64,000 nucleotides of DNA from positions 14,138,001 through 14,202,000 of the forward strand of contig OZ249436.1 of the NCBI GenBank assembly GCA_965235115.1, in the 5' to 3' direction. This DNA comes from Laetmonice hystrix (lineage: Eukaryota). The notes beneath the pieces were generated by a model. That model was not told the DNA's origin. It saw nothing but the letters and a program-made list of their open reading frames with translations, and did no database searches. The position numbers were made by a program, and so were the translations under genes. Below are positions 29,222 through 55,500 of the stretch, in pieces (the first letter of the stretch is position 1; each line of letters starts with the position of its first letter).

Positions 29222-30824
29222 ACCCAGTGTGGCCAGCACTGGTTGTCACTGGGATTGATACATTGACGTGTCGGACCCAGTGTGGTCAGCACTGGTAATT
29301 GTCACTGGGATTGATACATTGACGTGTCGGACCCAGTGTGGCCAGCACTGGTTGTCACTGGGATTGATACATTGACGTGTCGGACCAAGTGTGGCCAGCA
29401 CTGGTTGTCACTGGGATTGATACATTGACGTGTCGGACCCAGTGTGGCCAGCACTGGTTGTCACTGGGATTGATACATTGACGTGTCGGACCCAGTGTGG
29501 CCAGCACTGGTAATTGTCACTGGGATTGATACATTGACGTGTCGGACCCAGTGTGGCCAGCACTGGTTGTCACTGGGATTGATACATTGACGTGTCGGAC
29601 CCAGTGTGGCCAGCACTGGTTGTCACTGGGATTGATACATTGACGTGTCGGACCCAGTGTGGTCAGCACTGGTAATTGTCACTGGGATTGATACATTGAC
29701 GTGTCGGACCCAGTGTGGCCAGCACTGGTTGTCACTGGGATTGATACATTGACGTGTCGGACCCAGTGTGGCCAGCACTGGTTGTCACTGGGATTGATAC
29801 ATTGACGTGTCGGACCCAGTGTGGCCAGCACTGGTTGTCACTGGGATTGATACATTGACGTGTCGGACCCAGTGTGGCCAGCACTGGTTGTCACTGGGAT
29901 TGATACATTGACGTGTCGGACCCAGTGTGGCCAGCACTGGTTGTCACTGGGATTGATACATTGACGTGTCGGACCCAGTGTGGTCAGCACTGGTTGTCAC
30001 TGTGATTGATACATTGACGTGTCGGACCCAGTGTGGTCAGCACTGGTAATTGTCACTGGGATTGATACATTGACGTGTCGGACCCAGTGTGGCCAGCACT
30101 GGTTGTCACTGGGATTGATACATTGACGTGTCGGACCCAGTGTGGCCAGCACTGGTTGTCACTGGGATTGATACATTGACGTGTCGGACCCAGTGTGGCC
30201 AGCACTGGTTGTCACTGGGATTGATACATTGACGTGTCGGACCCAGTGTGGCCAGCACTGGTTGTCACTGGGATTGATACATTGACGTGTCGGACCCAGT
30301 GTGGCCAGCACTGGTTGTCACTGGGATTGATACATTGACGTGTCGGACCCAGTGTGGCCAGCACTGGTTGTCACTGGGATTGATACATTGACGTGTCGGA
30401 CCCAGTGTGGCCAGCACTGGTTGTCACTGGGATTGATACATTGACGTGTCGAACCCAGTGTGGCCAGCACTGGTTGTCACTGGGATTGATACATTGACGT
30501 GTCGGACCCAGTGTGGCCAGCACTGGTTGTCACTGGGATTGATACATTGACGTGTCGGACCCAGTGTGGTCAGCACTGGTTGTCACTGGGATTGATACAT
30601 TGACGTGTCGGAACCAGTGTGGCCAGCACTGGTTGTCACTGGGATTGATACATTGACGTGTCGGACCCAGTGTGGCCAGCACTGGTTGTCACTGGGATTG
30701 ATACATTGACGTGTCGGAACCAGTGTGGCCAGCACTGGTTGTCACTGGGATTGATACATTGACGTGTCGGACCCAGTGTGGCCAGCACTGGTTGTCACTG
30801 GGATTGATACATTGACGTGTCGGA
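29222..30824. repeat. 53-bp tandem satellite, about 30 nearly identical copies
   Basis: Unit gtgtcggacccagtgtggccagcactggttgtcactgggattgatacattgac. Four units are 56 bp (extra TAA). No unique spacers. Confidence 0.97.
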
Positions 30825-41299: not shown

Positions 41300-44120
41300 T
41301 TCCCAGCGGTATTGCCTTTCCTCCTGCTTATTAGCAGCTGATCTCTAAGTCCGTCACGCCAAAGACATCGCCATTCGATATTAAAGAGGGGAGGTTGATG
41401 TGATTCGAGTTCCATGCGCCACAGGCTTTATACTACTTTATATCATTGAGTAAAATTAAGAGTCTGATGTTCCACATACTGCTGTCTGTCTAAAAGCCAT
41501 AGTACTGAATATTGAGAGACAGTGACGATTATTCGACAAGGCTCTTTAATAGACCCATTGATCGAGACTTTGTAAGGGTGAATGGCGATGCACACATCAA
41601 AGACCTTTCTTTCTGCCCAGTCTGGCAGGGTATTTGACACAGACGTAGAACGTATGTGGAGGTTAATCCAACAGAAGCCTACAAGTCGCTCGAGTGTAGT
41701 AGGTCTAAGAGAAGTGGACCACATCTGAGGGAATCCCTTTAAAGTCAGTGTCTGTGGGTTACAGGGAAGGATGTCCATCCATTGATGATGCCAGGGGCAG
41801 GGATCGTAGTCGGACTACTAGGATATCTAACAGTTATTGATAAAGAGCTTTGAAAAGGATCAAGATATAACTGAAAAGGCATCGGTTTTTTTCCAATAAA
41901 AATACATCTTAAATTAAACTTTCCCAATGCAGACGTCAGTCGGCCTCAACGCCGACTGCGCAGCCATGTTGACAGTCGGTGACTAGATTGTAATGGATAT
42001 TTCGTGTAAAGTACTGTTTTACGTACATAAACGACCCAGGTATCCCTATGGTGGCCTATCATTGGTGAATATGTTACCTGAAAACTGTTTCTCTGTCATG
42101 TATTGTCATAATCCTAGTAACAATGATGAAGTTCATTGTGAGTGACGTAAGCGACGTGTCAGAAATATATAGAAAGCAAGAAAAGGGGAATTACAAAATA
42201 TAAGAAGATATTGTCAGCGAATATAGACCGGGTATTTAGATTTCCATTTAAGAAATTCGATGAGATGTGCTAGCAGAAACATGTGCGGACCCGCTAGTAG
42301 TGTTCTCGAGACCGGTGGCCAAGCTGTGCTGTAGAATGCAGCAGTCGGTTTCAGTCCTGCATCAGCTCTTATTAAGGTTATGAATGGAGCAGGGAATGCT
42401 GCTACATAATGCAAGTACAAGACTTCCAAGGGATGGGAACAAAGCCTGAAGAACTGCCCCCGGGTTATTAGGGCGATTGGTCCAGACACAGACACAGACA
42501 CAAAGAATATCATCAGGATAACTGCACTAGAGCAAGTGCTGGTCTCATTGGTGCATCTGATGTGTTGAATGCCCGGCAGGGTTAAGCTCTGCACGACAAT
42601 AAATTATTGGTCTGTGACGTTTGTGTGCATTGGATAGAGCGTCCGGCACTACTAAATTAGAGATGCAGTAAGAACAATATGCTGAAATGACATTAGATAG
42701 GAGCCAGCGAAGCATTCAAATCCAGGCAGGGTGTAACTTTGGAATTTTTCACAAATAGTGATTAGTTGATACTTTAAGGAGGATGAGAACTTTAAAACGA
42801 TAACTTCGATCTTAAAGCACTGACATTTCATCCATTTTATCCCCGAAATAAATTGCCAATGGCTTTCCATGTTGTTTATCTGACCGACATGAAAAAGGGT
42901 GAAGCAAAGAAAGTACACTTCTATGATTGGCGTGAGTATTGATCATGCCAACTTTAAGGCACATCACATTATTTTGACTGCATGTGATCTGCATGTAGTC
43001 TATGTCCCCTATTAGTTCTAGCAAAGAGAGAGGTTGCACTGATAAGAGAGCATATGATTGGTGCACAGTTCATTCTGAAAGATAAGGAGAGTGGAATATT
43101 GCGTGATTGCACAAACCTTCCATAAAAGTATGCGACAGCCTACGCATGACAGATTCTGTCACAAATGGCAACCACCAATCAGTCTACTTTATGCAGCAGG
43201 ACCACTCTGTACCAGAAGTAACTCTTGATTGGTTGAGCAATGGGTCATGTGACCTCAGACAAAGTTATAGTCAGAGTGGGATGTCGCCTAGGGAATTTCG
43301 ACATTAAAGAATTAGTTTCCCAGAATTTATAGATGAAGGGTCTAATATTATTGCTGCTAAGTCGTACCCAGAGTGCTTCCCTTGTTACCAGTAGATTGCT
43401 TTTATCAGCAAGAGAAAAAGGACCCAATGCAAAAATGTTCTCTCAATGGGATAGCTGCAATCTGATTCGACAGAACTAGTCCAACGGAAATACGATGACT
43501 TGCAGACTTGTTGCCACCATGAATGTCAGCATAGTACCAGATCTCCGGAGAATTCCTCAGATAAATCGAAGAAAGGAAGTTGAAGCAAATCAGGTCTTCC
43601 ATGAGATGAAGAGGGATTTCCTTTTCTGTGGAACGCCTCTGACAGAGATAGATTTGAGTTGATTCCATTCATTGTATGGGTTGAAAGGTCAGAAAGAATT
43701 GCTTCCATATGCTTTTAGCCTTTTGAACCTAGAGAATTGAGTATGTACTATCATGCAGTACATCACACATTCTTGGGAGTGATCGATTGTCGCTCATATC
43801 AGCAGATCTGAAGTAGCTCTGAGTGATCATCCAAATGATCTCGAGCAGGATATTTAACTCAAAACTGGATTAGTATACGTGAGCATCAAAGGTGGAACGG
43901 GAAAGGACATTATATGGTAATTACTGTTTGTTGTGTTTTCCCATTTCTGACTTCATGAATAACTCATAAATACCATGAAGAATATCAAATGCAAGCACGT
44001 TCCAAGGCAGCCCTAATCGCTCTACGTCTTGTATATATTGTAACCCAATAACAAAGGTAATATATAGACAAAACAAGTCGAAATTCAGAATGAAATTTGT
44101 TACCTTCATAAAATTAGACA
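41300..44120 (-). pseudogene. Possible decayed long coding sequence (NACHT-LRR/NLR-like?)
   Basis: A chain of protein-like minus-strand ORF pieces: VLAFDILHGIYEL (Walker-B-like), LHLMEDLICFNFLSSIYL, repeated QSYTLPG/QSLTLPG, and LEVLYLHY (LRR-like). No Walker A seen. Confidence 0.2.
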
Positions 44121-45226
44121 AAGGATGCGAAAGTCTATCATTGAATTAAACTGTGAACAAGAAATCGAATGATCAAATGTCGGTATGGCAACCAGCCACA
44201 GATTAGCAGATATCAGCCTATATAATTCTATGCTAAAATGTCTCCTCCTGAACCGCTTGCACAGTGCTGCCGCCATGCGGAAAAGGCGGCGACAAGGTGC
44301 CTCCATTCGGAAAACCTCGGCCCAACTTCCGGTCAGTCCCGAGGTGGGCCGAATGAAGGTACCTCATTACATTTAGGTCAATTCTATGACATTGTCGGTC
44401 TGGCTCAAGACGTTGTTTCATTTTTATATTCGTGATATTGCATTGTATAATGACGCACTGCAGGTGACCCAACCGAATTACATCATACTTTTGGGATTTC
44501 GCTTTTCCTATTTGTGTGACCACGGCCATTATAGGTACACTGCCACAATATTTTAAAGGCCCCCAGAAGTTTCATGCTTACTTAATTGAATGCATGCCTT
44601 GATGCATTTGCTCAAATCCCACTCTACAATCTGTTTTACATTTTTAACAGTTGCATCCTCAATTGTTAAAGGCAAAATATTAAACGACGCGCATGTTATT
44701 TCAACTTAGATAATATAGAAAATATAGTTCCAACATAAGAGATATAGTATAAGTGGTATAAGCCATGAACGAAACAATTCGACGGACCTTCAATTATCCT
44801 ATATTATTTCCAATTTTCAGAAGGTAGGTGGTATTTTTCATTGTCGCCTGCCTGCCAGCTCATTTCCCAAGGCGTAAAAAAACATTATGTATAGAGGACT
44901 ATGTGATTACAGATGTGTTACAGCACTCACATTTGCTGATTATGAAACGATCTTACCGTGAGGATGTATCCCAAAGCCGTGGGCGGTAGTCTCACACGGG
45001 CGAATTTTTATTCACACTATAGCATAACGTATCAGTGCCGATAAAACGCGATTTATTCGCTCTTTTTTGAAATATTGATTTGCAAAGATTGTAGCAGCAT
45101 TTCAGTCTCACCACTTGCTAATGAAGTTAGATAGAAAATTCCTCCGAGGGTGCTGTCAGGCTCACGGCGATTATCATTATTACGTTACACGAAAATCCTT
45201 CCAGCAAGCGACAGGCGAAGTCTTTA

Positions 45227-45558
45227 TTTCAGCACAATAACTCGCACTCCCAATTTGTAGAAGTTTTATTCCACTAAACATTGCAGTTTCTCGCTGTTGA
45301 ATATTAATCCATGTTACACATTGTCTTGTCCCCCCCGAAACTTCGGGAAAGGGTAAACCGATGCGGGAAATCTGCTCAAGTGATTTAATGTCAATGTCCT
45401 TCTCGCCCTCCCGTGGCTACGGGAAAGGGCCAGGATATAACTTTCTTGTCCATAACGTAAGTCTTCTTAGTTCTAGTTCCCCGTGGCTACGGGCAGAACC
45501 GAGAACCATCATTATTTGTTGGGCCCTACGGCCAAACAGGTGACCAAAGGAACCTGGG
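45227..45558 (-). repeat. Split direct repeat B2 (332 bp, 3' terminal)
   Basis: Identical by eye to 45768-46099 (offset 541). The ORF track gives the same 60-aa translation at 45361 and 45902. Confidence 0.97.
45265..45270 (-). promoter_or_regulatory. Candidate AATAAA polyadenylation signal near the element 3' end (also at 45806-45811 in B1)
   Basis: Plus-strand tttatt reads AATAAA on the coding strand, about 40 nt before the end of repeat B. Confidence 0.4.
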
Positions 45559-45580
45559 AGGCGCCGGGGATGGAGGCGGG

Positions 45581-45770
45581 CAGCAACCTGTTCACGTGCC
45601 TTCTCAACTCACACTGGCTTTCAAACTTTGCCCCTTAGCAACATCCCGCGCCAGTCTGCGCACGCACCTTATCCAGACTGGCGCACCTTATCCAGTTCCG
45701 GCTAAGACACACTCAACTTCGCGCTCCTTGTTGTGCTGAAAATCTATTTCGTGTCACGAAATTCCTCTTT
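45581..45770 (-). repeat. Split direct repeat A2 (190 bp)
   Basis: cagcaacctgttcacgtgcc...cacgaaattcctcttt is identical by eye to 52332-52521. Confidence 0.97.
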
Positions 45771-46099
45771 CAGCACAATAACTCGCACTCCCAATTTGTA
45801 GAAGTTTTATTCCACTAAACATTGCAGTTTCTCGCTGTTGAATATTAATCCATGTTACACATTGTCTTGTCCCCCCCGAAACTTCGGGAAAGGGTAAACC
45901 GATGCGGGAAATCTGCTCAAGTGATTTAATGTCAATGTCCTTCTCGCCCTCCCGTGGCTACGGGAAAGGGCCAGGATATAACTTTCTTGTCCATAACGTA
46001 AGTCTTCTTAGTTCTAGTTCCCCGTGGCTACGGGCAGAACCGAGAACCATCATTATTTGTTGGGCCCTACGGCCAAACAGGTGACCAAAGGAACCTGGG
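45768..46099 (-). repeat. Split direct repeat B1 (332 bp, just downstream of the YR stop)
   Basis: Copy of 45227-45558. Overlaps A2 by TTT (45768-45770). Confidence 0.97.
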
Positions 46100-46112
46100 C
46101 CCAACATAACCC

Positions 46113-47000
46113 CTAAAACAGAAGGCGAATGTATTTACGAAAAGCGTCTGACCGCCATCTACCCAACAGACTGATCTGAGCATCTGAGTACCCCGCCCTG
46201 GCCGGTTCAGAGGCGGCTCCTATCCTGAAACTATGGCCCTTGAAATGAGTGGTGTCCATCCCACATGCCATAAAAGGCTTAAGTAAGGCAACAACCCGGA
46301 AGTATGTATACCGCACCCCTGACACTCAAAAAACTCAGTCAACAATCTAACAGGACACATCACGTGATATGAACCCAAGGCCAACTGAATCCGCCGGGGA
46401 ACCGACGAGGTACCCATGGACACCAACCCTAAACTGTATCACTGGAACACCAAACCGTATACTCGGATACCAACCCCAACTGCATCACTGGAACACTAAC
46501 CCGTAAACTGGGACACCAACCCCAACCTGTATCACATATATTAGGGTTGTTAACCGCCAACATTATACTTTATCCAATCCACCAGAGCTACCTTACAGTA
46601 CGTTACAATCCATATTGACGCTCATCACCTGCTCTCCACGTCCCGCGACGGACCAACGGTAGAATTAACATAAACTTCACCTAGCAAGTTCATTTAATTG
46701 AAAATTATCATCAGCTCAAAACATCCGTTCTAGGACGACGAACTTAGACCCTTATAGCTGTCACCTGGCTCTTAATAGCCCGAAACGTCAACCCCCCGCA
46801 CTAAAAACCAGGGATAAAACCCACTTTTAGGAAAAAAACCCTGGAAAAGCGTAAAGGTGACTACGATGATATTCTAAGGGTACCCATCAACTCGGCTATA
46901 CACAACCCATATACACACACCCAACTACCGTGGCATCCATACCCTGACCAAATCAAACAGGGATTCAGCAGTAAAACACCGCGTATACACACTGTACGTT
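46113..47000 (-). pseudogene. DIRS/Ngaro-type tyrosine recombinase, frameshifted; 5' boundary approximate
   Basis: C-terminal motifs FKGHSFRIGAAS...LLGRWRSDAFRKYIR (HxxR, W and catalytic Y) at 46113-46325. MCPVRLL lies in an adjacent frame. A weak N-terminal GLTFRAIKSQVTAI segment lies near 46750-46810. Confidence 0.9.
46418..46535. repeat. About 46-bp tandem repeat (2.5 copies) inside the YR remnant
   Basis: Unit ggacaccaaccc(t/c)aactgtatcactggaacac(c/t)aa(a/c)ccgta..., starting at 46418, about 46465 and 46511. Confidence 0.8.
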
Positions 47001-47574
47001 GGTATATCTCATTGGTATATCTCTAAATCATAGTCAATCGTTCTTTCACATTAACTAGCAACATAATGTCCCCTAGTCACTAGCTGGGATGTCCGATGCA
47101 CGCGACTCCCATCCGCAGGAGTCAGCCTTGTCCGGCAGGATCGTGTCATGGTTTTCTATCCAGATTTTTCTACCTAGGGAGACACCCGCTCACTCTCACC
47201 AACTTGTCGCAGGTCTTGATTTCACCCCCTTGGGGGGCGGAATGGCCATCTGCAGCCACCCCAAGCATTCCGTGTTCCCTCCAATCGCATTGACCTCACC
47301 AGGGGCTGGGAGTCAACCCTTTCACACCGACGCCCAGACTCCTTGATCCACCAGGCGACACCTCCGTGGCACCAATCGTATTCTGTCGTCGACGACCCCG
47401 TTATCTTCCTGAAGACTATAACGAATCCAAGACCAAGCTCCATCGTTTCAGCTCATCCAATGGTCGACATGGCAATGAAAATTTAAAACAACAATATAAT
47501 ATCAATATTACCAATCATAAGGATCATTCCTTTGCCAACCCATCTGGACCCCTATTGCACCAATCTGATGACAC

Positions 47575-48160
47575 CATGGATACGCACATGTAAGAAGCCG
47601 CCCTCATTGGGATAGTATTTGCGTAATAGAACTTAGAGTCCCATTTTTACCCCAGTAATTAGTAATCCTTTGTGTGTATGGGGATAATTTTAAAGGCGGA
47701 CCTTCAGTTTTCAGTTTTTGGCATAAAGGTTCCATTGCCTATTCGTTTTATAATAGCTACAGCATCACCCAACGTAGCATATTACACAGTCTTCTCTTCA
47801 AAAGGTATGTGCTAATTCACTCTCACTGACTCCCCAAACGGATGGGACAATTTATGGATAAAGCAATACTCCCTCTGGAACTTTCTTCGGATCGAGACGA
47901 ACAAGAGAAACATGGAATTTAGGTAACTGTGGATGAGAAAATGGGCCCGCAACACGGGACACTGCCAATTCCTTTTCCCCACTTTCAGGGTCATCACCGT
48001 CATCTGCTGTTGATCCATTTCAGGGTTGGAACTTCTATATCGCAACCAAAACCCTAGGCTAAATCCCAGTTTAAGATACAAAACTTTATCGGGGCAATAA
48101 CCCGCTCTTAATAATGACTCCTTGAGTCTAGAACCTACAACTGGAGTCGGAAGTGCCAAG
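47575..48160 (-). pseudogene. N-terminal half of a DIRS/Ngaro-type reverse transcriptase; frameshifted and truncated
   Basis: Across frames: LPTPVVGSRL..YCPDKVLYLKLGFSLGFWLRY, RVAGPFSHP, DPKK, IHKLSHPFGESV, YATLGDAVAIIKRIGNG, SAFKIIPIHTKDY*LLG, KWDSKFYYANTIPM. No YxDD or RNase H motif seen afterwards. Confidence 0.85.
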
Positions 48161-48303
48161 CACACCGGAGCAATTTCTTTCTGAGCCTGCAACTGCAGGG
48201 ACTCAGTTGGCGCCACCACATGCATCTCCCCTGGACTTCCCGGTATCACCAAGGGCACTTCATGTGCCACCACTGGACAGCCTTTGGAGACCAATTGATG
48301 TCT

Positions 48304-48365
48304 GCTGCCGTCGCTGCCGTCGCTGCCGTCGCTGCCGTCGCTGCCGTCGCTGCCGTCGCTGCCGT
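48304..48365. repeat. (GCTGCCGTC)x~7 minisatellite at the gag C-terminus
   Basis: Perfect 9-bp units, reading (GSD)n in the gag frame. Confidence 0.95.
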
Positions 48366-49330
48366 TCCAACGATGGAATTGAAGACAGTGGCCTATTGGG
48401 ATCCTGGAGGTCGGTCTTGGCCGTTGCACTCGCGGATGACCTGATTCCCCCGTCTGGACCGCCCCCCTACACATGACATATAAACTGGCATCCAAGGATA
48501 ATTCAACATTCAACTGGCCCCACATTATTGAACCATCTGTCACACCCCTTCTGAAGCTTTCATCGCACATTAACCAGTCGCCACCAGACGCTGCCACCTT
48601 TTTGACATACTGAGCATGGGAGATCAGAGATCATGACAAGTGTAGGTGGACCTTAATCAACATGGCATGGAATCGAGCAAACGCTTGGTCCCACTCCCCC
48701 ACATTCATAGCCAGTCTGGGAGCGTCTTCACCAGCCTCAACGTTGGACGAACCCGTCGCCTACGACCTTGACAACAACGAGGATAATTCCACATATTGAT
48801 TCTCCTAAATCTTATTTTTTAAGGAGGCTGAGACACTGGAAACCAGGGACGTTGATATTGTATTTCACTCACTACGGATTGAGCTCCCCCCATGTACCAG
48901 CAAACCAGTCAGCGTTGACGCTGATGATGGACCTTGAGGTGGAATCGTCGCAGCAGCCGACGCTGGCCCCGATGCTGAAGCTGAAGCTGCCTGTAGCCGA
49001 TGGATGAGTCGATGGCAACAGCACTTGCTGGGCGTGAAGATTCTGCGGCCCTAAAACCTGAACCGGATGTCTACCCCCCTGTACGCCTGTAGCTGCAGGA
49101 ACAACAAGGGGATCTGGCGTATTGCGTTCCAACACCGGCCTCAGCTGGTGCCTAAAGGCCAACACTGCCTCAGTCACGTCCTTCTCGACCGCCTGAAACA
49201 GCAGAATGGTTTCCAGCGAATTGTCATGACGGCCTGCCTGACGCGAAGCCCCGGGCGATGCTGGTGGAGCTTCGAGGAGGTCGCTTCTTCTAGTCTGTGC
49301 CGGCCGAACCCTTAACAAAATCAAGAACAT
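48366..49330 (-). pseudogene. Gag-like ORF1 of the YR retrotransposon, with stops and frameshifts
   Basis: VSASLKNKI*ENQYVELSSLL, MNVGEWDQAFARFHAML, VAASGGDWLMCDESFRR...WGQLNVEL and IGHCLQFH resemble conserved DIRS/Ngaro ORF1 blocks. Confidence 0.75.
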
Positions 49331-49423
49331 TCATTAACCATTGCATTAATCCTTTATATATATCACACACCGCATGAGTAACAACACCTCGGCCTACACC
49401 ACAACCTCAAGCACATCACCAAC

Positions 49424-50322
49424 TCAATTCGCCCTGCTCAAGGCTTTCACCGATCTAATCAATACAGATCTAATACTGGTGAACAACTTAGCGTTCGCCA
49501 TGCGATTGTGATGTCAAAAATTTCCCCATAGGATTAGCATTGACAGGACCGACAGGTTTACAAAAACCAGCCTGTAGGCTGTATACTCACAATCCAACTT
49601 TCTAAACTATAAACCAAACATTATCCCAGAGTAACCATGCCAGCTATCATGTATTGTAACGTTGAATTATTAACAGCGACTTCACTGCAGAATGAAAATA
49701 TCTTAAAGTTGACTGTCACTCTTCCTCAGATGGCCATCGCAAACCAGCGAGGCTATCTGCTCCTTGTCCCGACAACGCGAATTCTCTTGAATTCTCGTGA
49801 CATACTTAGGCGCCCTATAGGCCTACTGGTGAACAACTTAGCGTTCCCATGGCTATTTAAATGCACCATCACGGAACATAAAGCCACCTGCCCCTATCGT
49901 ACGAGGACGACGCCAACACCTTCCTTCACCCGGGCATTAAAATGGTCTATCCTCGCTGAGTAGCTAATCAGGGACGGACCTCGGGTAGGTCCTCCGTCAA
50001 AAGCGGTACACACACAACCCTGCACACACCAAATTCCCCCGTGGCTCTTCTCACCACCATTATTAACCTCTCCCCCAATGGTCGCGGATGCACCTCGCTG
50101 TTGTTCGCCCCCATCATCAGGATGAGTATGTGGGGTTGATAGTCGTCCAGACAGTCCCACAGGGTTGGCGATCTTCTAAGTGGGCCTCTGTCCCTCCTTG
50201 GAAAGTCACGTCCACCTCCGCCACCCAAAGTTCTGTGAACGATGTGACTCGTCGATTTAGGTAGCTAACCGGCGAACATACGAATCGCCCATCATCAGCG
50301 CCTGTAACTTGAACTCCGCCAT
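49424..50322 (-). pseudogene. SGNH/GDSL-family hydrolase (esterase/lipase-like) ORF of the retroelement; frameshifted and interrupted
   Basis: ATG at 50322. Block I MAEFKLQALMMGDSYVRRL; block II VTFQGG; block III YQPHILILMMGANN; block V RDG[fs]HLNSHGNAKLFTS. After the insert the frame continues IRSVLIRSVKALSRAN* (stop at 49424-49426). Confidence 0.8.
49503..49823. other. 321-bp insertion into the SGNH ORF, flanked by a 23-28-bp direct duplication
   Basis: tactggtgaacaacttagcgttc(g)ccatg occurs at 49474-49502 and 49824-49851. Removing the insert and one copy restores a continuous C-terminal reading. Confidence 0.8.
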
Positions 50323-50406
50323 GACGAAACTGGCCCACTATCGCAAGGAATAATATTATAATCACCTAACATCAATTACAGTCATACATGTTAACGAATT
50401 AACCGG

Positions 50407-50510
50407 AGGGCGGGCAGGGGAGGGCAGGACAGGACAGGGCAGGGCAGGGCAGGGCAGGGCAGGGCAGGGCAGGGCAGGGCAGGGCAGGGCAGGGCAGGGC
50501 AGGGCAGGGC
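50407..50510. repeat. (AGGGC)n microsatellite
   Basis: About 15 perfect AGGGC units plus degenerate units. Confidence 0.95.
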
Positions 50511-50527
50511 AAAGCCAGGGAGGAAAT

Positions 50528-51608
50528 CCAAGTGCTGTCACCAACCATCACCATTGACAAGCACTGGCAACCAACAAGTACAAGTGGAACGCCATCTCAT
50601 GCACGTAGGCCATCTTGATGAGCGCAGAAACGGGAGGCGTCAACTCAAGCACATTGCCATCATTGCTAACACAATTACATCCGAGTGCTGTCACCAACCA
50701 TCGCCAACTTGACAAGCACCGGTGACGACCAATAAGGACAAGTGGAACGCCATCTCATGCACGTGGGCCGTATTGATGAGCGCGATTAAGGAAACGGGAG
50801 GCGTCACCTCAAGCACATTGCCATCGTTGATGAACGCAATTACATCCGAGTGCTGTCACCAACCATAGCCAACTTGACAAGCACCGGTGACGACCAATAA
50901 GGACAAGTGGAACGCCATCTCATGCACGTAGGCCGTATTGATCAGCGCGATTAAGGAAACGGGAGGCGTCACCTCAAGCACATTGCCATCGTTGATGAAC
51001 GCAATTACATCCGAGTGCTGTCACCAACCATAGCCAACTTGACAAGCACCGGTGACGACCAATAAGGACAAGTGGAACGCCATCTCATGCACGTAGGCCG
51101 TATTGATGAGCGCGATTAAGGAAACGGGAGGCGTCACCTCAAGCACATTGCCATCGTTGATGAACGCAATTACATCCGAGTGCTGTCACCAACCATAGCC
51201 AACTTGACAAGCACCGGTGACGACCAATAAGGACAAGTGGAACGCCATCTCATGCACGTGGGCCGTATTGATGAGCGGGAATAAGGAAACGGGAGGCGTC
51301 ACCTCAAGCACACTGCCATCGTTGATGAACGCAATTACATCCGAGTGCTGTCACCAACCATCGCCAACTTGACAAGCACCGGTGACGACCAATAAGGACA
51401 AGTGGAACGCCATCTCATGCACGTGGGCCGTATTGATGAGCGCGAATAAGGAAACGGGAGGCGTCACCTCAAGCACATTGCCGTCATTGATGAACGCAAT
51501 TACATCCGAGTGCTGTCACCAACCATAGCCAACTTGACAAGCACCGGTGACGACCAATAAGGACAAGTGGAACGCCATCTCATCCACGTAGGCCATTTTG
51601 ATGAGCGC
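50528..51608. repeat. 165-bp tandem array (about 6.5 copies) in the element 5' leader
   Basis: ccgagtgctgtcaccaacca starts at 50681, 50846, 51011, 51176, 51341 and 51506 (period 165). A divergent first unit starts near 50528. The unit has stops in all six frames. Confidence 0.95.
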
Positions 51609-52331
51609 GGGCAGGAACTGGCGGACCATAATACACAACATACACATACATTAAGCCTCAAAATATGCAGGCAACAGGCCTGCTAACATATATTCAATCA
51701 TATCACGGGCATCATTAAATTCATGAAGATCAACTGTCCGCACCAACCTCAACAATTTACCACGTTAATAACTAATTAATAACATAAGTGACAGGCACAA
51801 AGAACAGAATCAGTTATTTCCCTTTATAAATCACACACAAAGGGCTAGCACTGGCCGACCTTCATCGAGGTCACCCCTTCCCATGAAACGACTAAGTATA
51901 AAGACCACCCGGGAGCTCACTACCATACTCGACTCAAACGAAAACCTCCCGCACAGTACACCGTCATAACATACGCAAAAGTGTGGGTTGAAGAACCCGA
52001 CTCTCAGTAACCTGTCTTCACTACACAGGCCTTTCCGACCAATACCATACGCTATTGTGAGGGGTTAGCACACGCCACACAACGTGGCAGCCGCACCCAC
52101 TGAGTCGAGCAGGTCGTTGAGCGTCCTTGGCAACCAGTACAACAAAGAGCTAACTCTCGCTGCAATATTTCACCACAGACCGGGAGCTTACTAGGCCTAT
52201 GACCGAATTAATTGGGAAATAAAATACTTATCCGCATTTGTTCGTTGAGCAGATCCTATGAAGGCCACCGCAAATTCACTCCAATTAAAACGGCTTGGAC
52301 TACCACTGCAACTTGGCTCCCGCTCCACTCA

Positions 52332-52521
52332 CAGCAACCTGTTCACGTGCCTTCTCAACTCACACTGGCTTTCAAACTTTGCCCCTTAGCAACATCCCGC
52401 GCCAGTCTGCGCACGCACCTTATCCAGACTGGCGCACCTTATCCAGTTCCGGCTAAGACACACTCAACTTCGCGCTCCTTGTTGTGCTGAAAATCTATTT
52501 CGTGTCACGAAATTCCTCTTT
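52332..52521 (-). repeat. Split direct repeat A1 (190 bp, 5' terminal)
   Basis: Copy of 45581-45770. Similarity ends sharply at ...attcctcttt|agtgttacc. Confidence 0.97.
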
Positions 52522-55500
52522 AGTGTTACCCTGGGGCCCTTGTATCTCAACCTGGTCATGCGGTGATGCCTTGGAGAATGGTCACGATCCTTTATAGGTG
52601 TGGTCAACAGAGCTTTCATTTATGTTTGTGACATTTTACGGAAGCAGTTCGGGAAAGGCCGCAAAAGGGCACAGGGAAATGGAATATCCTTGGCTGGGAG
52701 AGTGGCCGGGTTGTATGACGGCGGTGTGCGGAGGGACCGTGGTAGCGCCGAGTGCCCCGAGTATGTCTTGGAGGTAATGACGACATCAAACTAATTGAGG
52801 CGTGCTGTGGGGAGGCCGTCCGGGGTGTTCGCGGGGAGGTTTGGGGAGTCCACCGGCTCACATAGAACCGGGACCAGCATGAGGTGACTGAGGCTGAGCC
52901 GATGGGGCTCCCCCCACCACCCACCCACCCACCTCTAACCTCCTCCCCCTCATTGTGGGCTGCTCTAGTCTGTGGGATCCAGAGATCGAGAGGTCAGCAG
53001 CATGGCGGCGCCATAAGTCTCCATCAGGTCCCTAATCCTCACTGATGAATCGTTTTCACGGTCAACGCAAAGAAACCATCTTGTTTGCTTTGACGTTATT
53101 GAACCATTTTGAACACCATGTATTTTCTGTCTGAGATATATTGTTCGTAAATTGGAGAAGATTGCCACAAATTTTTATTCTTCTGCTCTGCACCTCTGCC
53201 ACTCGAAAGTCCAAGAGCATTGTGAAATTGAATTCGTTTCGATGAAAGCTCACAAAGTAATTTACGGAACTACCAAAAGGTGAATTCAAAGGTATTTAAT
53301 TCATGCTGTTACGTTGTAAAAGTAATATCTTGGGACGGAAGAAGATCCATGATAAAAAAAACCGGGACGCAATCAGTCTGCACGAGCTCCACCAAGGCGA
53401 CAGGCATAGACTGCATTCATTCCGTGATTTGGGATTTCATGGCCTACGTACTAATTAACTGCAGTAAATGAATCAGAAGATGAAAACGAACAGCTGGGGT
53501 ACGATTGAGTACCTGGTATGCCGTTTCAAAGTGATTTCACTAGAGTAACGTAATAAAAAGAAAAGGGCATATTAGCATTTATTACCATAGCAGCTTATCT
53601 ATTACGCATAGCTTTAATCCATAGATCAATATTGAGTGTTTATCTTTCTGCCATCGTTCAGTGGTGATAAAATGCGGCAGCGTGATTTTGAACCGACAGA
53701 GTGGTGCCTTCAGTGATAAATGAGAAAGCAGCTTTGTGAACGGTAGCATCGTGTTTAAAGTTGTAACCGTCCAGGGTGGCGCTCGTCGACCTGCTACCAG
53801 ATAACGGCGCCATTTCACTCCCCACGGATTCAGTGCTATTAATTCTACCCCCTGTATCTGCCGACCTCAACCTTCATTCCGGTCATCTCGCCTTTTTGGG
53901 TCTTCCTGGCAGGATCGTGGTGGAGATCAGTGAATTAGGTACTTTATCTCTGATCACTGCCGGGAGATCAAAGACTTCCAGTCACAATTTCATCAGTTTT
54001 CGCTCCCTCCTTTCCCTTTGATTCATTTAACATTGTCGGTGTGACGGAGGACAACCCAAGTCAGTTATTATGTTTCCGTTTCTTTGATCACCTTGGCCGA
54101 GGAGAACTTCTTATTTTTCCAAGTGATGAGGAGAAATCAACATGTGTGGCATCCTTACCAATCGGTTTTGGTGACTTGAAAGATGTGATTCACAGTGCAT
54201 GGGCGCACCAAGTGGGAAAAGATGGAGTTCCTGTCAAGAATATGACTGGGAGCCTGGATAATCTTAACTCTCCCATTCCACAGTTGACGCATAGTGGCAT
54301 CCTTTGTAGTTCATTTACATCACAACATTTAAAGTACTGGCATTATAAGGAGCCTTTGCTCGGAAACCATAGAAACTAGGTCCGCCATTAATTTTTTTTT
54401 TACTTATTTGTTTATCATGACTGATTCGAATAGATGCGATTGGGTATTAAATAGAAAAAACATTAATGATAAAAGCCAACTAAAAAAGTCCATACGGATA
54501 TTCGATATGACTAACACTTTCATTTACTCTTAAAATGAATGATTACAATTACTGTATGTTTTAAGGTGGATAATTGTAGACTCATATTTGTAACAGATAA
54601 AGAAAAAATTATCTTAAATAACAAGAATCGGAACAATAATGATGCAGAGTGAACGAATGAATATTACATTAGGACATAGAACATCGACTTTTTACGGCCT
54701 CGAAAAAGCACCTCAATTTTGTCGGGTAGAAAACGTTAGTATGGCAAGATCGTCAGTGTGACAAGGATGTTCTATGTGTGGTTTATTTATGGTGATGATG
54801 TCTGACCCGCAAAGCGACCCATCAAATAACATGAGCGCGAGAGGCCACACATCCCTGAAACACCTCGTCACATGTTGATGATGTATGGCTTCAACGCTGG
54901 TGACAGGGTCAGACAAGCTTGGTGAATACCCCGGTCTCAAGGGGCTTCATATTGGAGCGCCTGAACATGTAAGGATCAGGTGTAATTAGACCCCAGAGTG
55001 AGTAGGATTAAACCCTTTACATTAGTAACTCCTACTCTAAGCCTGACACCTGGTGGCCAGTAAATCCATCAATCGGTGACAGGGCTTCCGTTCTTTCAGG
55101 GTCGTTCAATATATGAGTTGCTTCAGTTATGCAGTGTTGTATCATCAGGAGCGGCTATACCCCACCCCCGACCGAACGTAGCCATTATTTGCTCAGTGTT
55201 AGGGGACTCGGGACATATCACTTTCAACACCTTTACTTAGCTTTATTACGAATCGTGCAAATATATGTGCAGCATTGCTACTCTGAACGAACAATTTCAC
55301 ACAGATAACAATAAGCCAAGAATGCAGACACATTTCAGAGGCACTTGTTTTTCTTCTTATGTCTAGGTAAATAAGGTATACATTGCGTAAAGGAATTTGT
55401 TGGGCAAAATCATTTAAATAACTTACAAGGGATAAGAAAGGCCAATCGACCTGACATGGAAGCAATATTAGCTTGCTCGCCAGTCTTCCCCTCGGGAGCC

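Follow-up and report, generated by a model that had tools for sequence, protein, structure and literature searches.

Within the 64,000-nucleotide stretch of Laetmonice hystrix DNA that we analysed (contig OZ249436.1, positions 14,138,001 to 14,202,000; the window), positions 45227..52521 hold a Ngaro-like split-repeat tyrosine recombinase (YR) retroelement, which is a non-autonomous derivative and not an autonomous member. It measures 7.3 kb in total, and every gene remnant lies on the minus strand and is broken (Table 1). The repeats and genes stand in the order A1-ORFs-B1-A2-B2 with identical repeat pairs, which is the definition of Ngaro-like elements (PMC9210276). The remnants are collinear on one strand (gag-like, then RT, then YR), and intact relatives have the same order. 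The first-pass annotation had seen no differences by eye within A1/A2 and B1/B2. Exact comparison confirmed this, giving 190/190 identical positions for A1 and A2 (offset 6,751) and 332/332 for B1 and B2; in each pair the identity ends abruptly on both sides.

Table 1. Features of the element (window coordinates; a point marks features given without a strand)
Feature	Position	Strand	Remark
Repeat A1, 190 bp, element 5' end	52332..52521	-	outer TTT core 52519-52521
5' non-coding stretch	51610..52331	-	no similarity to other parts of the window
Tandem array, 165 bp x 6.6	50526..51609	.	five full units, 1-6 base differences
(AGGGC)21 microsatellite	50407..50511	.	
SGNH/GDSL hydrolase remnant, broken	49433..50323	-	GDS motif near 50285
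gag-like remnant	48364..49330	-	conserved part 48364-48882, 4 stops
(GCTGCCGTC)7 expansion	48304..48365	.	splits gag Cys/His region
RT remnant, N-terminal part only	47583..48156	-	profile 9-197 of 535
Non-coding block of ~1.15 kb replacing the core	46427..47582	.	lower boundary approximate
Tyrosine recombinase remnant, C-terminal part	46116..46426	-	profile 157-271 of 273
Repeat B1, 332 bp	45768..46099	-	
Repeat A2, 190 bp	45581..45770	-	TTT core 45768-45770 common to B1
Inverted-repeat arms at B1/A2 junction, candidate recombinase site	45728..45781	.	14 bp, 13 Watson-Crick pairs
Spacer A2/B2, 22 bp	45559..45580	-	
Repeat B2, 332 bp, element 3' end	45227..45558	-	outer TTT core 45227-45229

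TTT is present at both ends and at the internal junction, without a longer target duplication. Such trinucleotide ends are what integration by a YR is predicted to leave behind (PMC7192593), and the internal core, where B1 and A2 overlap, is the predicted circle junction. The inverted repeat at this junction, whose arms were identified without a shuffle control, contains an inner 7-bp hairpin. An AATAAA motif is located within B2 (minus strand, 45270-45265).

All the coding remnants are decayed. In the gag-like remnant, 4 of 173 codons are stops and the (GCTGCCGTC)7 expansion splits the C-terminal Cys/His region; the match of this remnant scored 365, as against 37-48 with a shuffled query. Over ~185 codons the RT remnant shows 5 stops and 2 frameshifts (near 47975 and 47870), and it stops short of the catalytic DD motif. 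Together, gag and RT carry 9 stops in 353 codons. The YR remnant has one frameshift (near 46320) and one stop, and keeps the HSFR motif and the terminal Tyr region. The SGNH remnant consists of four weak collinear pieces, which are the four best matches of a relative-built profile across the whole window (2-8 bits each; Pfam Lipase_GDSL_2 E 0.041; Atlas 0.92). Its C-terminal piece is duplicated (49825-49866 and 49433-49513). A 98-aa SGNH piece compared with longer proteins found no homologue among 123 candidates, and a Pfam scan of 22 short frames gave nothing above the curated cut-off.

Across the whole window, nothing matched RT profile positions 198-535 (of 535) or YR profile positions 1-156 (of 273). 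The element therefore lacks the catalytic core of RT, RNase H and the N-terminal half of the recombinase, which makes it a replacement derivative, more than a point-mutated copy. A complete RT/RNase H and a complete YR, which characterize an autonomous Ngaro-like element, are missing here. The first-pass annotation was right that gag, RT, YR and SGNH are all broken, but it overlooked the replaced core, and the damage is larger than it described.

For the following comparisons we used short-read contigs from four runs (X1-X4), all from one sample that is possibly the source of the assembly. They cover the part of the element below 48296, and 32 of 2,113 matches were listed. The ~1.15 kb block standing in place of ~1.55 kb of RT core, RNase H and YR N-terminal half was likely taken from another repeat; among the matches listed, an X4 contig matches 47263-47583 and continues from 47583 with 1,845 letters of different sequence. 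The replaced part measures 1,167 here, compared to a median of 1,553 in 27 intact loci. A reading of the block as RT/RNase H merely decayed beyond recognition was rejected, since the homology signal of 120 bits vanishes at 47583, the block falls ~390 bp short, and the contig of the other repeat leaves at that same position. A 46-bp tandem unit occurs in this region (46418-46535).

The relative loci were also short-read contigs, many of them redundant copies of the same families. The hydrolase lies upstream of gag in this copy, and SGNH was found upstream of RT in 32/34 relative loci of at least 5.8 kb; the upstream placement is thus shared, and we rejected it as a peculiarity of this copy. The upstream ORFs of the relatives matched Lipase_GDSL_2 in 9/9 cases scanned, 6 of them above the Pfam cut-off, and the optional SGNH hydrolase ORF of Ngaro-like elements is present here as a weak remnant. 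None of 11 relative RT ORFs scanned had a methyltransferase family match, which argues against a PAT element; the corresponding region is deleted in this copy. The last RNase H motif was matched in 26/82 relative proteins, and in these only 27-42 residues come after it (RT proteins were limited to at most 616 aa, the loci were without that limit). Of the short-read loci, 5/34 have an exact repeat of 30 bases or more at a contig end. RT alignment against viral contigs yielded no relative (0/32 candidate stretches).

The repeats and the interior of the element are very unequally decayed. With 0 differences in 522 repeat bases, repeat divergence is at most 0.57% (95%). A divergence of 0.6% would predict 0.19 stops, and 9 were seen (P ~1e-12, simulation); 9 stops in 353 codons imply ~0.1-0.4 substitutions per site. 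The contrast between repeat identity and stop density is therefore far beyond chance. Identity between terminal repeats indicates when an element last jumped; it does not tell how old the interior is or what it can still encode.

Several lesions are shared by a family of copies. Among the matches listed, contigs bridging the RT truncation at 47583 were at 11.5x (X2) and 13.9x (X3) the flank depth, which is a rough proxy only and not a copy number. An X2 contig at 9.7x spans both RT frameshifts with 0 gaps, and an X1 contig, reaching only 28 letters past 47583, was not counted as bridging. The first units of (GCTGCCGTC)7 are also in a high-depth X2 family contig, with a loose end at 48293. Not every lesion is shared: the stop at 47647-47649 is missing from the majority contigs, which have 7 gap letters relative to this copy within 47555-47760. 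In the high-depth contigs listed, 12/451, 8/315, 13/481, 2/245 and 4/286 letters differ from this copy, and its interior distance from the family majority is ~2.7%. The suggestion that relatives would share the inactivating mutations is thus borne out by the ~10-15x contigs carrying the 47583 junction and both frameshifts. As the truncation and the frameshifts are common to them, the lineage was apparently already dead when amplified, and the family would have been amplified after these lesions arose. The element is likely one of ~10 or more similar copies and landed recently.

Had the 2.7% difference arisen in place, 0/522 repeat differences would have P <=6e-7. Gene conversion between repeats is a general phenomenon, and an old insertion could have decayed in place while recent conversion with its own or family repeats equalised both pairs. 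Donors of A and B are abundant, the summed depth at 45612 being 49-92x that of the flank among the matches listed. We nevertheless consider this highly improbable. Two independent pairs, one of them 6.75 kb apart, would have to convert completely, and the lesions shared by the ~10-15x family would be left unexplained. At 45612, moreover, A1 and A2 here have one letter in common and every X1-X3 contig listed has a different one; the pair therefore varies jointly, with a letter that the majority contigs lack.

The site of insertion also bears on the age of the copy. The flank next to the element is at single-copy depth (59-66 at 44810-45043). Among the matches listed, single-copy flank contigs in 3/4 runs (X1, X2 and X3) match 44728-45229 with 0 differences; their match ends at 45229, exactly where the TTT core ends, and they run on for 394, 2,677 and 394 non-element letters. 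When these lengths are laid on the right flank, 394 ends at 52915 in a C-rich repeat and 2,677 at 55198, at no obvious feature. Judged by match position rather than by the run-on letters, these contigs likely represent the empty allele, and the copy is likely young and heterozygous. The recent insertion of an already-dead copy, as first proposed, agrees with this likely empty site. Conversion in an old insertion would not explain contigs that exit exactly at the TTT and match the 502 bases next to it without a difference. Pfam analysis of 50 stop-free frames (chosen by length, mostly among the 127 of at least 75 aa) recognised neither a host gene nor a family at E 0.01, and an Rfam scan of 43000-54000 gave no hit.

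A DNA-level spread that bypassed reverse transcription, either by recombinase-mediated circle excision and re-integration or by segmental duplication, appears quite improbable. In principle YR reactions can run backwards, and an element flanked by TTT could be removed precisely, but DNA-level copying would keep differences within A1/A2 and B1/B2; there are none, despite the ~2.7% interior distance from the family majority. Against segmental duplication, the flank at this locus is at single-copy depth right to the boundary.

That the repeat identity or the insertion itself is an assembly or polishing artefact is very improbable, even though no contig among the 32 of 2,113 matches listed joins the flank to B2 across the filled left junction. 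The short-read contigs reproduce B2 (0/290 letters different) and the B2-spacer-A2-B1 joint (1/273), and in X3 a loose end at 45581 has the sequence of A1's inner flank. The same assembly separates 165-bp units differing by 1-6 bases, and it retained the copy's own variant in both A repeats instead of the majority letter. An artefact would hardly respect the TTT core at both ends.

These data together make it probable that the element belongs to a multi-copy non-autonomous Ngaro-like family, as a young and heterozygous member copied by the enzymes of an intact relative. Under the DIRS model, a transcript of the defective copy would be reverse-transcribed by a putative helper RT, and its ends would be rebuilt from the internal B1-A2 junction, re-equalising A1/A2 and B1/B2. 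A putative helper recombinase would then integrate the product at a genomic TTT/AAA. Along the chain of source copies the interior would drift neutrally while the repeats are reset. DIRS-1 RT works in trans (PMC7192593); regeneration of the split repeat is carried over from DIRS-1 by analogy and may operate here. A 40-base pattern from repeat A had 0 matches in metagenome contigs.

A further version, which we regard as unlikely, is a chimeric full-length parasite which, while being copied, exchanged its catalytic core for part of another repeat. It would have outlived its parent family and been cross-mobilised round after round by a distant recombinase element recognising only the palindromic B-A junction. 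If so, its copies record successive replication rounds and show how much of the split repeat is rewritten per jump. As for trans-mobilisation by an intact relative, its principle is already known for defective YR elements. A set of such copies could test split-repeat regeneration at each jump and delimit the smallest set of cis signals (A, B and the junction).

TOC1 of Chlamydomonas reinhardtii has a split-repeat layout and no ORFs. It is a mobile non-autonomous YR retrotransposon, a version of TOC3, and its copy number varies between strains (PMC9940879; PMC5613634). TOC1 has a named partner, whereas the partner here is only putative. Several copies sharing a defect, as in a TOC1-like family, are indicated here by the ~10-15x contigs, with depth as a rough proxy. 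It is well supported that the present element is a new member within already described non-autonomous split-repeat elements. PAT-N1_Ec32, Ngaro-N1_Ec32 and Ngaro-6_Ec32 of Ectocarpus have an A-internal-B-A-B layout of 7.8-9.5 kb (PMC12477816, supplementary file 1). Two of the three are listed as nonautonomous with internal tandem repeats; PAT-N1_Ec32 carries a pol fragment, and the ORFs of Ngaro-6_Ec32 'may be pseudogenised', its termini being ~90% like those of an autonomous family (PMC12477816). These are from a brown alga and the present one from an animal, and the likeness is by description, without sequence comparison. In the present element, unlike those, all four ancestral ORFs leave readable remnants, one specific truncation is shared between copies, and an empty allele is likely. 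As an animal case it is a clean one: the decayed coding remnants and the reset end repeats form two clocks, with the likely empty allele adjoining.

DIRS and Ngaro are not mentioned in PMC5408684 and PMC4021074. Among Ngaro-like elements, Xenopus DIRS-53_XT has the A1-ORFs-B1-A2-B2 order with 100% identical pairs and encodes gag, RT, YR and an SGNH hydrolase (PMC9210276), and Cafeteria Ngaro types 1-4 include dispersed deletion variants without ORF1 (type 2b; PMC8547959). In contrast to these, the present copy cannot make RT, RNase H or recombinase. The SGNH hydrolase follows YR in the amphibian element, whereas here it lies upstream of gag.

The first-pass annotation had read the element, an Ngaro-like split-repeat YR retroelement, as having repeat pairs without differences and broken genes. 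Exact extension confirmed the former: A1 and A2 were identical at 190/190 positions and B1 and B2 at 332/332. In the direction of the element the order is A1, interior, B1, A2, a 22-bp spacer and B2. TTT (plus strand) was observed at each outer element end, and one TTT is also common to B1 and A2. The B1/A2 joint lies inside 14-bp inverted arms with an inner hairpin (no shuffle control).

Coordinates of the element, its parts and neighboring features
Feature	Position	Strand	Basis or remark
Element	45227-52521	minus	exact repeat extension
Repeat A1	52332-52521
Repeat A2	45581-45770
Repeat B1	45768-46099
Repeat B2	45227-45558
Middle block	46427-47582		non-coding; lower boundary approximate
gag remnant	48882-48364
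SGNH remnant	49433-50323
SGNH C-terminal piece, two copies	49474-49507; 49824-49857		350 bp apart
Right flank	52522-53030
Tandem array	29222-30824		53 bp x 30, 97% matches
High-copy repeat	44174-44360		short

The remnants occur in the order SGNH, gag, RT and YR. Breaks in the last three were located by frameshift-aware alignment to the closest intact proteins, with X placed at the breaks, and the genes are indeed broken. The gag remnant has four stops (alignment score 365, compared to 37-48 for shuffled queries), and (GCTGCCGTC)7 interrupts its Cys/His tail. The RT remnant has five stops, frameshifts near 47975 and 47870 and a possible third at its very end; its homology ends at 47583. Only the C-terminal part of YR is left. 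Profiles built from 81 RT and 23 YR relatives matched at RT positions 9-197 of 535 and YR positions 157-271 of 273; no other stretch of the window exceeded noise in any of the six frames. The gap from RT end to YR start is 1,167 bp, compared to a median of 1,553 in 27 intact loci. From these profile gaps and this spacing we conclude that other sequence has taken the place of the catalytic RT core, RNase H and the N-terminal half of the recombinase. The SGNH assignment is weak for this copy taken alone (Pfam E 0.041; Atlas 0.92 with 136 shared features); however, the four best matches of a relative-built SGNH profile over the whole window all fall in 50310-49433, in order. A C-terminal SGNH piece is duplicated inside the element.

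Scanning metagenome contigs with the RT alignment identified 218 relatives, and 80 of them were retained. Among the 34 relative loci of at least 5.8 kb, an SGNH match lies upstream of RT in 32 (in one of these also downstream), and two lack such a match; the profile had been seeded with 12 loci, and the set includes many redundant ones. Judged by these loci, the normal layout in this lineage places the SGNH/GDSL hydrolase ORF upstream of gag, whereas a downstream position is reported for amphibian Ngaros. We found no description of an upstream SGNH in the literature covered, most subscription papers and Repbase being outside it. By the definitions in PMC9210276 and PMC7192593, the lineage would fit Ngaro rather than PAT or DIRS, because none of the 11 scanned RT ORFs of relatives matches a methyltransferase. 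Two homologous proteins are named, one from a limpet and one from a coral. Three database proteins (P0001, P0031 and P0097) join the N-terminal part of RT to the C-terminal end of YR, which suggests that RT-YR fusing internal deletions, or gene models, recur in relatives, including a limpet. At two relative loci (L049:1176-4538 and L058:6091-8688) another retroelement interrupts the locus or lies next to it, these being a Gypsy-type gag-pol and a LINE-type RT.

The absence of differences in 522 repeat bases puts repeat divergence below 0.57%. To accumulate nine stops in 353 codons under a simple simulated neutral process takes ∼0.1-0.4 substitutions per site, a rough range because the simulation drew on the codons of the remnant itself and kept the transition share fixed; at 0.6% divergence only 0.19 stops are expected, compared to the nine seen.

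We compared 41300-48295, at 80% likeness, with contigs of four runs (X1-X4; one sample, one study); the figures come from 40 of 268 letter differences, 24 of 334 loose ends and 32 of 2,113 pieces listed. Contig depth on the left flank was 51 (X1), 70 (X2), 37 (X3) and 0 (X4). Over the RT remnant it was 511-808, ∼10-15-fold the flank, although depth does not equal copy number. The RT truncation at 47583 is bridged by X2 record 12 (47516-47760) and X3 record 20 (47489-47774), each of which extends beyond it by more than 31 letters in both directions; X1 record 5 runs only 28 letters past it and was not counted. X2 record 14 (47813-48293) has 13 other letters and no gaps, so both RT frameshifts are common to it, and its loose end holds the first units of the 9-bp expansion. 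The same truncation and frameshifts in high-depth contigs argue that the family had lost function before it multiplied. Some damage is private to this copy: the majority contigs lack the stop at 47647-47649 and differ from the element by seven gap letters in 47555-47760. The repeat pairs are identical, yet the interior differs by ∼2.7% from the family majority. A1 and A2 have a common letter at the position matching 45612, where all listed X1-X3 contigs differ and an X4 contig carries the element's own letter. Depth of repeat A at 45612 is 49-92-fold the flank, more than twice that of the RT remnant; therefore other A-bearing sequences (solo repeats, other derivatives or a helper) are likely to exist. 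X4 record 27 is ∼90% like 47263-47583 and then has 1,845 other letters from the base where RT homology ends, a departure that points to another repeat as the putative donor of the middle block.

The left flank 44728-45229 was matched without differences by X1 record 3, X2 record 10 and X3 record 17, which run on past 45229 for 394, 2,677 and 394 letters, none of them on the element. Position 45229 is the last TTT base, the exact parting point expected of an empty allele. Further left, two haplotypes were observed, with 17 (X1) and 16 (X3) other letters in ∼2,900 and none in X2. No contig across the filled left junction was present among the 32 of 2,113 pieces listed. The insertion is likely to be heterozygous, with the other allele empty.

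In the DIRS model (PMC7192593), the termini are restored from a template inside the element, where a copy of the two ends stands joined; integration by the recombinase takes place at a trinucleotide, which afterwards borders the element. In Dictyostelium this internal region has proved necessary, and RT acts in trans. B1-A2 with its TTT would correspond to the internal junction of this model. A defective transcript would be copied by the proteins of a putative helper, and in each round such copying would rewrite and so reset the repeats while the interior drifted. The identical pairs beside the ∼2.7% interior distance, and the co-variation of A1 and A2, are consistent with such copying. The recent trans-mobilised jump of an already dead, defective lineage, as first proposed, is supported by independent evidence from the shared lesions, the likely empty allele and the co-varying repeats.

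The observation is real; as a kind, non-autonomous split-repeat elements are already known. TOC1, a non-autonomous DIRS retrotransposon, is described as the non-autonomous counterpart of TOC3 (PMC9940879, PMC5613634); for Ectocarpus, the split-repeat families Ngaro-N1 and PAT-N1 are listed as nonautonomous and contain internal tandem repeats, PAT-N1 carries a piece of pol as well, and the ORFs of Ngaro-6 may be pseudogenised (PMC12477816); Cafeteria has dispersed Ngaros with ORF1 deleted (PMC8547959); and SIRE has been considered a potential non-autonomous form of VIPER (PMC6681497). No account of an animal non-autonomous Ngaro family was found in the literature covered, to which most subscription papers and Repbase do not belong.

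The middle block and the RT remnant also have older relatives in the same sample, which stand at single-copy depth and are ∼89% identical, at 47095-47571 and 47681-48031 (X1 records 4 and 6, X2 records 11 and 13, X3 records 19 and 21). X4 covers none of the flank, and its depth profile over 45265-47617 departs from that of X1-X3 (220-1,070 on the middle block, 3-23 on RT). The X4 contigs of B, A and YR fit the element's letters (0/290, 1/273 and 0/288 different) where the dominant X1-X3 contigs differ; despite this, the RT contig of X4 is another copy. The right flank has a higher G+C than the left flank and may itself derive from a repeat that has decayed; Pfam gave no match for its two longest frames. 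The repeat at 44174-44360 is of very high copy, with many contig loose ends and a summed contig depth of up to ∼150,000 at 44222, compared to ∼50 on the flank.
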